The translations under genes and the position numbers were made by a program. Shown piece after piece: positions 14,500 to 17,612 of a DNA stretch of 64,000 nucleotides (positions within the stretch are counted from its first letter, which is position 1; each line of letters opens with the position of its first letter). The notes below the pieces were generated by a model, which was not told where the DNA came from, did no database searches, and saw nothing but the letters and a program-made list of their open reading frames with translations. Source of the stretch: an uncultured Armatimonadetes bacterium (GTDB taxonomy: Bacteria > Armatimonadota > UBA5829 > DTJY01); NCBI GenBank assembly GCA_963717145.1, contig OY970325.1, positions 3,392,001 to 3,456,000 on the forward strand. The letters run 5' to 3'.

Positions 14500-15339
14500 T
14501 TACCTAAGAACGTGAACGGTTACGTACTTGCGGCCGAAGCGGATCGCCTCCCCGTAGGTGTTGTAGCAGAGGTCGATCTTGTTGCCCTTGATCGCGCCAC
14601 CAGTGTCGGCGGCGATGCAGTAACCATAGCCCTCGACGTAGAGCCTTGTGCCGAGCCGGATCACGCGCGGGTCAACGGCGACTACGCCTTTGCCGGCGTG
14701 CATGCCGTTCGCGCAGTGGCCGGTCGCCCTCGGTCCGCAGCTTCTCGGGCCGGGATCGTAGGCGGTGGCGAGCATTCTGAGCGTTCTCACCCGCGTCCCG
14801 CCACGCGACGTGAGTTCCTGTCTCTGCGAGCTAGCGACAATTTGGTCTTTCGGCTGCCTGATAACCTTTACCTCAAGCGTCTGCACGGTACTCTGGACGC
14901 CGTCCTTGTAGAAGATCCGGAGCTTGACTTCCTTCTCGCCGGGCTCGCCCTTCCGGAAGACTGCGTTGGCGCCTCTGTGCCGAGGGTCATACTTTACGAC
15001 CGTCTCGAACGGCACCGGTCGCTTTGTCGTGACGACCTTCTCCTCGATTCGAGTTATCCGAATCGTCATGCCGGTCACAACCTCGGTGTCGAGCTTGTAA
15101 CTGCACCGGTCGAGCTTGCCGAGCGTAACGCCGGCTTCCTTGAGGACTCCGCCCACTGTATCCGCGGTGGAGACATACTCCCACTCCTGACCGTCCGCAA
15201 GGATCGTAACCTTGATGGCGGAACCGCTCTGCGCGGTGACAACAGCGCCGAGGACAACTATCAGTGCAATCAATAGTGCAAGGCCGAAACGCCGCCTTGC
15301 CGCTCGTAGATTCTTTAGAATCAAGTATATCGCCTCCAT
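14500..15339 (-). CDS. YabE/RpfB-like cell-wall protein (DUF348 + G5 + 3D domains)
   Basis: TM anchor, TVGGVLKEAGV, G5 GEPGEKE, 3D ATAY...VAVDPRVIRLGT...AADTGGAIKGNKID; upstream of rsmA. Confidence 0.9.
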   Translation of the reverse strand: MEAIYLILKNLRAARRRFGLALLIALIVVLGAVVTAQSGSAIKVTILADGQEWEYVSTADTVGGVLKEAGVTLGKLDRCSYKLDTEVVTGMTIRITRIEEKVVTTKRPVPFETVVKYDPRHRGANAVFRKGEPGEKEVKLRIFYKDGVQSTVQTLEVKVIRQPKDQIVASSQRQELTSRGGTRVRTLRMLATAYDPGPRSCGPRATGHCANGMHAGKGVVAVDPRVIRLGTRLYVEGYGYCIAADTGGAIKGNKIDLCYNTYGEAIRFGRKYVTVHVLR

Positions 15340-15512
15340 CCGGCGGTCGGATTACCCACAAAGACACGCGCACAAAACATCACATTGGGAAAAATGATGG
15401 CTGGAATCTGCGACACCGCGCATATGTGTCAGGTGGCACACGGTGTCCTGGTGGGCTTGAGAACCGTATTCGGATTTGACCTGCAGATTGTCCGCCCGCC
15501 ATGGGACGGGCG
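15340..15512 (-). promoter_or_regulatory. Structured 5' leader, candidate RNA switch
   Basis: Hairpin CCGCCCG/CGGGCGG, long-range AAUCUGC/GCAGAUU, mutually exclusive partners for GACACCGUG; no known riboswitch recognised. Confidence 0.45.
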
Positions 15513-15516
15513 GGTC

Positions 15517-15545
15517 ATTCTAACACATGCCGTCTGCTAAGTCAA
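15517..15545 (-). promoter_or_regulatory. Sigma70 promoter of the G5-3D/rsmA unit
   Basis: TTGACT-17-TAGAAT with extended TG. Confidence 0.75.
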
Positions 15546-15684
15546 ACAACCGCTTTGGTGTGTGTGGATAATCGCGTCCCCTACTGAGTTGCTGGTTCGC
15601 AGTGCTGCCGAAAACCGCAATTCCCTTTCATTATGGGCGTCAACGCGGCTATCTGGAGGTTTTTCCCGGTGTTTCTGCCGGGAT

Positions 15685-15747
15685 GCGGGAGGGCGAGGCT
15701 CCGTCCGAGCCACAAGTGGCGGCTCGGACGGAGCCTCGCCCTCCCGC
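15685..15747. repeat. REP doublet GGGAGGGCGAGGCTCC family
   Basis: gcgggagggcgaggctccgtccgagcc-9-ggctcggacggagcctcgccctcccgc. Confidence 0.85.
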
Positions 15748-15758
15748 CAAACAAGGCG

Positions 15759-15796
15759 AAAAAACGGCCCGGACGCCTGCAATACGTCCGGGCCGT
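15759..15796 (-). terminator. Intrinsic terminator
   Basis: 12-bp stem ACGGCCCGGACG/CGUCCGGGCCGU followed by a U-run on the minus strand. Confidence 0.85.
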
Positions 15797-15910
15797 GGGA
15801 GACGGAACAGATCGGATAGGGAAGGAGAGTCCATCCGACCGTTCCCTGGGATTTGCACTTCAGCGCACAATAGCCCGATCGCCGGTCCGGCGACCCTGCT
15901 ACGGCTGAGT
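15759..15910 (-). ncRNA. Candidate ~150-nt small RNA
   Basis: Lies between a near-consensus promoter and a terminator; three hairpins plus terminator; no credible ORF. Confidence 0.55.
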
Positions 15911-15916
15911 TAAGAG

Positions 15917-15945
15917 ATTGTAAACCATAGCCCCGATAATGTCAA
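15917..15945 (-). promoter_or_regulatory. Sigma70 promoter
   Basis: TTGACA-17-TACAAT. Confidence 0.8.
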
Positions 15946-15986
15946 GAGAAACTCAGCAGCAGGCAGGGCGAACGCATCAAAACACA

Positions 15987-16086
15987 ACGATGCCTCGGTA
16001 GCAGAGGCCCGGCGGCGCTGCCGAAGCATGTCACGACACCGTGGTGCTTCGGCAGCGCCGCCGGGCCTCTGCTACCGAAGCATCGT
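15987..16086. repeat. Long inverted repeat (42-bp arms, 1 mismatch)
   Basis: acgatgcctcggtagcagaggcccggcggcgctgccgaagca and its reverse complement. Confidence 0.85.
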
Positions 16087-16179
16087 ACTCCCGAATCGAG
16101 ACGATTGGATGCGTTCGCCCTGAGCGGCAGGGGAGTTGGGCCTGGTTGGCGAATACCCAGAGAGGGATTTGATGCCATT

Positions 16180-17612
16180 GTGAAGCAAGTCGCGCTCGTG
16201 AATCCGAACCGGCTTTGGCCGGGAGTTGCTCCCATTGCACTCGACTACCTGGCGGCGGAACTCGACCGCCGGGGGATCGGCGTGCGGATCCTCGACCTCT
16301 GTCACGCCAGGAAGCCCCTCGACGCCATCCGCTCGTTCTTCAGCGAGAACAGCCCCGACCTGATCGGCATCTCGATCCGCAACATGGACGATGTCGTCTA
16401 CAATTGCTTCCTCGCGCGGGAGATGAAGGTCCTGGTCGACGAGATCAAGCGGTGCACAACCGCGCCGATCGTCCTCGGCGGGAGCGGGTTCTCGATCGCG
16501 CCCGAGTTGCTGCTCGACTTCTTCGACGTCGATCTGGGCGTCGTCGGCGAGGGCGAGGAGGCGATTGCACTATTGGTGGAGCGGCTCCAAGAGCCGCTCG
16601 ATCCCGAGACGACTCCCCAGACTGGACCCCGACGATCTCAGGCGACTCCGTCGCCGGCGGCCGGCGACGGAGTCGCCTGAGATCGTCGGGGGTCCAGTCT
16701 GGGGACATCCCTGGACTGATCAGCCGAGCGGAAGGCGATTTCCAGCGGAATGAGCCCGGGTGCATGGACACGGGATGCCTGCACGTCTCGAAGCGCGCGT
16801 GGATTAGGCATTCGAGCTACATATATAAGGACGGGAGGAAGGGCAGCGCGGGCGTCCAGACCAAGCGCGGATGCCCGAACCGGTGCATCTACTGCGTCGT
16901 GCCGAACATCGAGGGCCGGACGGTCCGGCTGCGCGATCCGAAAGATATCGCCGATGAGATGGAGAACCTCGCGGCGGCCGGTGTGAAGCGCATCTTCCTC
17001 GCCGACAGCGAGTTGAACTACCCTCTGGAGCATGCGATGGGCGTCTGCGAGGAGATCATCAACAGGGGACTCCCGGATCGTGTCACCTGGCAGGCATATG
17101 CGTCGCCGGGGGACTTCGATGTCCGGCTGGCGAAGTTGATGAAGGAGGCGGGCTGCGACCTGCTGATCACGACATTCGACAGCGGCGACGACTCGATCCT
17201 CGAGCGGCTCGGCAAGCCGTTCCGCACCGAGGACACGGTCGCGACCATTCGAGCGATCCAGGAGGCGGGGCTGAACGCGCCCTGCTGCCTGACGCTCGGC
17301 GGTCCGGGCGAGACGATGGATACGCTGCTCAAGACGCTGCAGTTTGCCCAGTCACTCAAGCCGATGCACGTGACTTGGGGCGAGCCGCCTGGACTCCGCA
17401 TCTATCCTGATACGCCGCTCGCCGACATCGTGCGCGAGGAGGGGTTCACTCCGTCGAACCGCAACCTGCGCGGGAAGATCAGGGGCAACGAGGACTTCCT
17501 CGAGCCGGTGTACTACATGTTGGCGGGGATGGGCGTCCTGATCCCGATGATCCAGGCCTGGCGTAAGGTTGGCGAGTGGCACCATCGGCTGGCGGCGGGG
17601 AAACACGAATAG
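16180..17612 (+). CDS. B12-binding radical SAM enzyme (TsrM-like class B methyltransferase); 1-nt frameshift near 16630 and palindrome insert
   Basis: VALVNPN..P.VAPIALDYL, IGISIRNMD, VGEGEEA in frame 1; RGCPNRCIYC in frame 3. Confidence 0.85.
16634..16684. repeat. 51-bp perfect palindrome, copy 1 (extended to 16614-16705)
   Basis: gatctcaggcgactccgtcgccggc-g-gccggcgacggagtcgcctgagatc. Confidence 0.95.

Follow-up and report, generated by a model that had tools for sequence, protein, structure and literature searches.

In Staphylococcus aureus, RsaE and RNAIII are described as combining a 5' hairpin, UCCC motifs located in loops or linkers and a classical terminator, and the UCCC motif of the Rsa RNAs and RNAIII is reported to bind Shine-Dalgarno regions and thereby to prevent initiation (PMC2790875). 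The Listeria sRNA LhrC contains three UCCC sites, two in loops and one in a linker, all of which bind a G-rich sequence upstream of the lapB start codon, and in the account of this RNA the UCCC motif is regarded as typical of low-G+C bacteria (PMC4132741). The locus described here lies in a 64,000-nt stretch of DNA (the whole of which is referred to below as the window) from a genome of the Armatimonadota, and includes a putative non-coding RNA of comparable build on the minus strand. Like RsaE/RoxS, LhrC and the hairpins of RNAIII, the candidate stands alone and falls in the size range of about 100-150 nt; a hairpin at the 5' end, a terminator, and loops and linkers that carry several UCCC motifs are likewise common to them. 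Unlike RsaE/RoxS, LhrC and RNAIII, it has no similarity to the corresponding Rfam models; also, unlike the C-rich sRNAs of Bacillota, it occurs in another phylum, in a genome with 61% G+C, and is known from sequence alone. The best reading of this locus, to which a probability of roughly 40% is given, is an sRNA specific to this lineage which acts in trans by pairing with G-rich ribosome-binding sites.

The candidate occupies a gap between two genes, where a strong promoter and a strong terminator frame a region of about 150 nt on the minus strand (15945-15759). The promoter P1 (15917..15945, minus strand) is composed of a -35 TTGACA (15945-15940), a 17-nt spacer and a -10 TACAAT (15922-15917), exactly as had been predicted originally, and matches the consensus at 11 of 12 positions. 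From the spacing, transcription is predicted to start at A 15911 or 15910. The intrinsic terminator (15759..15796, minus strand) has a G+C-rich stem spanning 15796-15764 with a 7-nt loop and is followed by a T-run extending to 15759; the stem is of 13 pairs when the outer A-U is included and of 12 pairs when it is not, in agreement with the 12-bp terminator and U-run that had been described for this site, and the tail after the hairpin would be U5-6. Because the next gene upstream is divergent, the terminator does not belong to an upstream gene. The view that this is a stand-alone unit is thus upheld: it has its own strong promoter and terminator, contains no ORF and matches no known family. 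Within its own genome the candidate is single-copy: at E<=0.001 it matches only itself, the next best being two matches of 21-24 nt that are attributable to chance (E 0.2-0.8), and the many copies characteristic of REP/REPIN-type elements are not found for the candidate itself.

The significance of the two signals was assessed by scanning the whole genome (5.37 Mb, 60.6% G+C), using the reversed and complemented genome as the null. Promoters matching at least 11 of 12 consensus positions number 269 in the genome versus 6 in the null, and perfect matches number 38 versus 0. Strict terminators, defined by a perfect G+C-rich stem of at least 7 bp and a T-run, are found 204 times versus 26 times, and those with stems of at least 12 bp 67 times versus once. 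Transcription signals are non-random in this genome. Because the null counts are so low, the promoter and the terminator of the candidate are each very probably real, and as promoters and terminators of such strength almost never arise by chance in this genome, a transcript of about 150 nt is likely; we infer from these signals that the candidate RNA is made.

A scan for short units, in which a promoter of at least 10/12 is followed on the same strand within 450 nt by a strict terminator, yielded 18 units genome-wide, including the candidate. Six of the 17 others have an Rfam match at E<=0.001, namely three T-box leaders (113.9, 85.2 and 47.5 bits; gathering score 93), two tRNAs and one PyrR site (51.1 bits; gathering score 54); the remaining 11 have no Rfam match. 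Thus, the scan recovers real RNA units, many of them attenuators, so that a reading of the candidate as a cis-acting leader was worth testing. Like the T-box leaders and the PyrR site of its own genome, the candidate has a promoter of the same type and a strong terminator within a few hundred bases; unlike them, it matches no family and lacks both a predicted antiterminator and a gene directly downstream, and the next gene has its own conserved promoter. Two of the units, L041 (G000:C1:3107862-3108465) and L042 (G000:C1:1363910-1364565), are T-box leaders whose long insertion is made up of heptamer repeats (GATCACC/GATCACT and their complements) and forms an extended hairpin, which may explain their sub-threshold Rfam scores (85.2 and 47.5 bits versus 93). 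In two of the units without an Rfam match (G000:C1:1938030-1938250 and 1496977-1497184), small ORFs seem to follow ribosome-binding sites of the GGGGG type.

The candidate has no discernible coding capacity. No ORF starting inside the transcript closes there except one of 2 codons, consistent with the earlier statement that no credible ORF is present, and none of six longer ORFs overlapping the region on either strand has a Pfam match at E<=0.1. Over the whole window, Rfam 15 gives no match at the gathering score, so that the search which the original prediction had proposed supports its view that no known family is involved. When the region 15300-16300 is searched at E<=10, the matches overlapping the candidate (ncS037, scr5239, CC0196, Mcr7, sX13 and HBV PRE) score 9.5-19.7 bits versus thresholds of 35-380, and no partial similarity to a riboswitch or leader family appears on the candidate. 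RsaE/RoxS, LhrC and other curated sRNA families are ruled out, as no score reaches a gathering threshold.

sX13 of Xanthomonadaceae is an sRNA with C-rich hairpin loops. The candidate is similar to it in that C-rich hairpin loops are the presumed seeds, and sX13 is the only model of a C-rich-loop sRNA that aligns to the candidate; membership in this family was rejected, as a score of 13.7 bits versus a gathering score of 50 (E = 7.8) is noise. Housekeeping RNAs are located elsewhere in the genome, 6S RNA at G000:C1:3075589-3075774 (78.7 bits) and SRP RNA at G000:C1 1237014-1237114 (65.5 bits), and the candidate is therefore not a diverged copy of either. Overall, the candidate is outside every curated family and is built like the C-rich-seed sRNAs.

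The full-length RNA is predicted to fold with -75.8 kcal/mol (z = -5.0), a value equalled by none of 200 shuffles; for the body without the terminator, z is -2.9 and one of 200 shuffles is as good. In both the minimum-free-energy and the centroid folds, the 5' stem-loop SL1 (15857..15910, minus strand; RNA nt 2-55) is a long irregular stem enclosing an 8-bp hairpin, GGUCGCCG-GAC-CGGCGAUC (15895-15877). SL1 is followed by an 11-nt single-stranded linker, GCAAAUCCCAG (15846..15856, minus strand), with a mean probability of being unpaired of 0.93, and then by SL2 (15804..15845, minus strand), which has a 15-pair stem and the 11-nt loop ACUCUCCUUCC (15830-15820; mean probability unpaired 0.95). 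A second single-stranded linker of 7 nt, GUCUCCC (15797..15803, minus strand; mean probability unpaired 0.91), leads to the terminator.

Each of these three elements contains a UCCC motif. The first, in the linker GCAAAUCCCAG (15851-15848), is unpaired with a probability of 0.99 per base; the second, at the SL2 loop (15822-15819), has a mean probability of 0.68, and the third, in the GUCUCCC linker (15800-15797), of 0.97. At least three unpaired UCCC motifs occur in only 1% of 400 random genomic windows of equal length. Thus, by prediction, the candidate has the feature that defines the C-rich-seed class, i.e., several unpaired UCCC motifs in a stand-alone RNA. Of 165 hairpins with C/U-rich loops in the genome, SL2 is the only one followed within 80 nt by a strict terminator, and among these hairpins no sibling RNA of the same design was found.

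Of the three hairpins that had been proposed for the RNA body, two are present in the minimum-free-energy fold, GUCGCCG/CGGCGAU and GGAACGGUCGGAUGG/CUAUCCGAUCUGUUCC with the loop ACUCUCCUUCC. The middle hairpin GGG..UUGUGC/GUGCAA..CCC can form, but its ensemble probability is below 1% (-69.2 versus -76.2 kcal/mol), and the model favours the long 5' stem (nt 2-55) over it. The proposed accessibility of the C/U-rich loop agrees with the folding prediction, and the two UCCC motifs in the linkers extend the earlier claim.

These features suggest how the RNA could act. A sigma-70-type promoter would fire at about 15911 and the intrinsic terminator would end the RNA at about 15760, producing a molecule of about 150 nt that would fold into the 5' stem-loop, the second stem-loop with its 11-nt C/U-rich loop, and the terminator hairpin. 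The three UCCC motifs, two in linkers and one in the loop, would stay unpaired, and at least one of these patches would pair in trans with the G-rich Shine-Dalgarno regions (GGGA / GGAAGGAG) of distant mRNAs, thereby hindering ribosome binding. Hfq may assist in this pairing: the protein is encoded in the genome and the RNA would end in a hairpin and a U-tail. We infer this mechanism solely from the anatomy of the RNA, and both the action in trans and the type of target are put forward on the basis of the structural model. In Hfq-dependent sRNAs, a terminator hairpin with a U-tail is the module bound by Hfq; here the terminator hairpin is followed by a U5-6 tail and the genome has an hfq gene (101.2 bits), and the candidate may bind the protein. 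A csrA gene is also present.

For target prediction, 4168 crudely defined start regions were used, of which 600 were sampled for a comparison with 20 shuffled loops of the same composition. The mean duplex energy of the loop region is -11.8 kcal/mol with the 4168 start regions and -11.9 kcal/mol with the 600 sampled regions, versus -11.3 +/- 0.6 kcal/mol for the shuffled loops. With respect to these crude start regions, the loop, for which pairing with ribosome-binding sites had been suggested, does not outperform its shuffled counterparts. None of the best predicted targets among the 4168 (-25 to -22 kcal/mol) is a clear outlier, and the start regions of yabE and rsmA, the genes downstream of the candidate, are merely average (-11.4 and -11.7 kcal/mol). 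Neither the seed-based target scan nor the start-region scan has discriminating power. One segment of 24 nt (genome 4137349-4137372) is complementary to both the loop and the 3' arm, but was rejected as a target because it lies antisense inside a 427-aa ORF, where the mRNA has the same sense as the sRNA.

The original prediction had proposed a homologue search around yabE-rsmA loci and had counted a lack of conservation against itself; no conservation was found at those loci. BLAST of 40 relatives gave only a 27-nt chance match, in G003, inside an 894-aa ORF which we take to encode the RNA polymerase beta subunit. Searched with blastn-short, the 1,560 nt that precede yabE in the 10 family genomes yield no match longer than 13 nt. 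A covariance model, R1, built from the candidate body as a single sequence and hence weak, gave no match at E<=1 in the 10 family genomes and three weak matches at E<=0.1 (31.5, 25.3 and 21.9 bits) in 150 genomes sampled from the phylum. The best of these (31.5 bits) was rejected as a homologue, being the 3' end of a 503-aa ORF and its terminator; in the other two, which were seen as alignments only, the greater part of SL2 falls into an insert that is left unaligned.

The pattern formed by the loop and the top of its stem has three matches in metagenome contigs, and these were rejected as homologues: two look coding in our reading, one is an unrelated combination of promoter, hairpin and terminator, and by BLAST only the 18-23-nt seed is common. 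A 23-nt pattern has no match in genome contigs, the loop pattern has none in viral contigs, and plasmids and phages contain no match to the candidate. In all, no convincing homologue was found among 190 genomes or in three contig collections. One metagenome contig (L035:1-260) combines TTGACA-17-TAGAAT and a terminator with a C/U-rich run for which a purine-rich run containing GGAGG is a possible pairing partner; this unit is unrelated to the candidate, with only the CUCUCCUUCCCU stretch in common.

sRNAs are often not conserved between genera, and many are no older than a genus. The source genome is the only member of its genus in the genome set, which covers 199,900 species. As the nearest genome is of another genus (yabE 71% identical), the absence of conservation weakens the sRNA reading and does not refute it. 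At that distance the yabE leader is still recognisable in the closest relative, G001, and the unit must therefore be either truly missing from G001 or unrecognisable there.

Downstream of the candidate and on the same strand lie a gene for a yabE-type protein with DUF348, G5 and 3D domains (15339-14500, minus strand), then, after 32 nt, rsmA/ksgA, encoding the 16S rRNA dimethyladenosine transferase (14467-13535, minus strand), and next a DegT-type aminotransferase gene. The distance from the candidate to yabE is 420 nt and holds a repeat element and a second promoter, P2 (TTGACT-17-TAGAAT; 15517..15545, minus strand). An equivalent of P2 with at least 9/12 matches is present in all 10 family relatives, nine of which have at least 10/12, at 174-321 nt upstream of the yabE homology, and the leader that begins at P2 is identical at 165 of 204 positions to that of G001 and at 143 of 199 to that of G006. 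The candidate had been regarded as separate from the yabE-rsmA operon, and the conserved promoter which the operon keeps for itself confirms this; the unit is independent of the yabE promoter. A further promoter with a strong terminator upstream of the P2 equivalent occurs in none of the 10 family relatives. Weak traces there are limited to a 9/12 site in one relative and a 6-bp terminator-like hairpin in another. Rather than a conserved yabE leader, the unit is something that this lineage has in addition, at a point where gene order breaks.

On either side of the candidate, and outside the RNA, lies a repeated palindromic element. On the promoter side, a palindromic repeat of about 160 bp (15964..16122) has five other copies, with 94-98% identity over 145-167 nt and all ending at 15966-15963, and the family related to it has 28 loci in the genome at E<1e-5. 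This repeat ends 18 nt upstream of the -35 box, and the idea that it carries P1 is ruled out on that account. On the terminator side, a palindrome with a 27-bp stem (15680..15755) begins 4 nt past the T-run and occurs at 30 loci at E<1e-5. With 28 and 30 loci, respectively, both flanks have the many copies typical of REP/REPIN-type elements. Half-units of the repeat of about 160 bp also form a tandem array at G000:C1:4377245-4377851, with a 64-bp period and at least 7 units, and one of the short units mentioned above (1938030-1938250) directly adjoins another copy of the palindromic repeat family flanking the candidate. Gene order breaks at this locus: in G001, G006 and G008, a different gene precedes yabE. 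Here, the divergent gene upstream is a B12-binding radical-SAM gene, whose B12-binding domain ORF (16105-16680) and radical-SAM domain ORF (16215-17612, both on the plus strand) are in different frames, which points to a frameshift near 16580-16680, i.e., either a broken gene or a sequencing error.

This setting, between two mobile-type palindromic repeats at a gene-order break, counts against an sRNA function, as non-functional leftovers are plausible there. The closest rival to the sRNA reading is that the transcription unit is young or a relic and regulates nothing. The promoter and terminator would then be real and an RNA might be made, but this RNA would be left over from a rearrangement, for example as the leader of a gene since lost, or would have arisen recently and do nothing specific. 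This explanation is only somewhat less probable than the sRNA reading: the unit is present in one genome only, the upstream gene differs among relatives, repeats stand on both sides, the apparently frameshifted B12/radical-SAM neighbour suggests a decaying neighbourhood, and target prediction reveals nothing beyond composition. The tidiness of the unit speaks against it: the promoter is close to consensus, the 5' hairpin is stable, three UCCC motifs are accessible (1% of random windows) and the terminator is very strong. Nor does even partial similarity to a riboswitch or leader family appear at E<=10. A cis-acting module of yabE-rsmA, in which transcripts from P1 would under some condition pass the terminator and raise operon expression, or the terminator would insulate the operon promoters, is unlikely. 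The same orientation at a distance of 420 nt and the frequency of attenuators (T-box, PyrR) among the short units of this genome are compatible with such a module, but no antiterminator is predicted: when the 3' arm of the terminator is blocked, the best remaining fold is less stable by 23.5 kcal/mol and leaves the 5' arm unengaged. Moreover, the repeat element and the conserved P2 intervene before yabE, the arrangement of a second promoter and strong terminator upstream of P2 is missing from all 10 family relatives, and Rfam finds no leader or riboswitch here or in the yabE loci of 16 relatives, where a single tRNA is the only match. An attenuator or riboswitch leader of the T-box, PyrR or c-di-AMP ydaO type was rejected on the same grounds, i.e., no family match, no antiterminator and a yabE gene 420 nt away.

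That the region is not transcribed at all, its promoter-like and terminator-like sequences having arisen by chance, is quite improbable. The region is G+C-rich and packed with palindromes, so that stable folds come cheaply; nevertheless, the null counts are 6 versus 269 for the promoter class and 1 versus 67 for the terminator class, and both signals stand 150 nt apart, in the right order, on the same strand and in a gene-free region. A protein-binding or decoy RNA is very improbable; in its boldest form, such an RNA, encoded beside rsmA, would imitate the 16S rRNA 3' end. The RsmA enzyme methylates helix 45 of 16S rRNA, where the GGAA loop carries the methylated adenines, and because the gene for this modifier adjoins the candidate downstream, a resemblance to 16S rRNA was tested. 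The first 29 nt of the RNA are identical at 22 positions to the 16S stretch running into helix 45, the 8-bp hairpin then stands at the place of helix 45, and the SL2 loop, with CUCCUU, resembles the anti-Shine-Dalgarno tail. Random windows match the last 60-62 nt of 16S rRNA equally well in 19 of 5995 and 24 of 4992 cases, in a comparison that was made after the fact, and longer alignments are not significant, being equalled by 298 and 212 of 4992 windows. According to the mimicry idea, the 5' end would copy the strand leading into helix 45, the hairpin would replace that helix and the loop would imitate the anti-Shine-Dalgarno tail, so that the RNA might titrate RsmA or another 16S 3'-end factor, or vie with ribosomes for Shine-Dalgarno sequences. 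Autoregulation of KsgA is background to this idea, and a literature search turned up no paper on it. Unlike the 16S 3' end, the candidate has a hairpin loop of GAC and not GGAA, its anti-Shine-Dalgarno-like loop is about 48 nt further on. The similarity covers a short stretch and is absent in relatives: nothing comparable was found upstream of yabE in 29 of them, the single high score falling on the ribosome-binding site of a divergent gene. The resemblance is thus probably due to chance, and the decoy modelled on the 16S 3' end is, of all the explanations considered here, the hardest to credit. With csrA and hfq both in the genome, a role in binding one of these proteins is conceivable within the broader class, but in our reading a single GGA in a hairpin loop is unlike CsrA sponges.

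The reading as a lineage-specific trans-acting sRNA thus stays the preferred one. Provided that the RNA exists and is active, Armatimonadota would have a first candidate regulatory sRNA; in the literature naming both Armatimonad- and sRNA, no paper on regulatory sRNAs of this phylum was found, judged by titles. The design of low-G+C Gram-positive bacteria, with an exposed UCCC seed, a 5' hairpin and a terminator, would then have arisen independently in a genome of 61% G+C in another phylum. Orphan sRNA candidates of such a kind are common, and this one, a well-formed prediction from a single genome, matters little until a transcript is shown.

Several additional features were noted in the leader of yabE itself. 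The leader from P2 (15545-15325, minus strand) is 81% identical to that of G001, above the 71% identity of the protein. A hairpin right after the P2 start site seems, in our reading, to be kept by differing sequences in several relatives; RNAalifold detects no conserved RNA structure in the yabE leader, giving 3 pairs without covariation for 19 sequences and none for 7 leaders. Just upstream of the yabE start, a motif GTTT-N15-GGGTAA is located at 15378-15352 (minus strand), of which GGGTA is invariant in all 19 aligned yabE leaders from several families of the class and is found at 21 of 30 loci (L004-L030 included). The consensus given for SigB-type promoters is GTTTAA-N15(+/-2)-GGGTAT (PMC9847131), and yabE seems, from the fit of its motif to this consensus, to have a stress-sigma promoter besides P2. 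The real start of yabE is probably the TTG at 15324 (15324-15322, minus strand), with GGAGG 8 nt upstream, and not the ATG at 15339; the yabE relatives have in common the arrangement ...AAGGAGGCGAT-N3-5-TTG.
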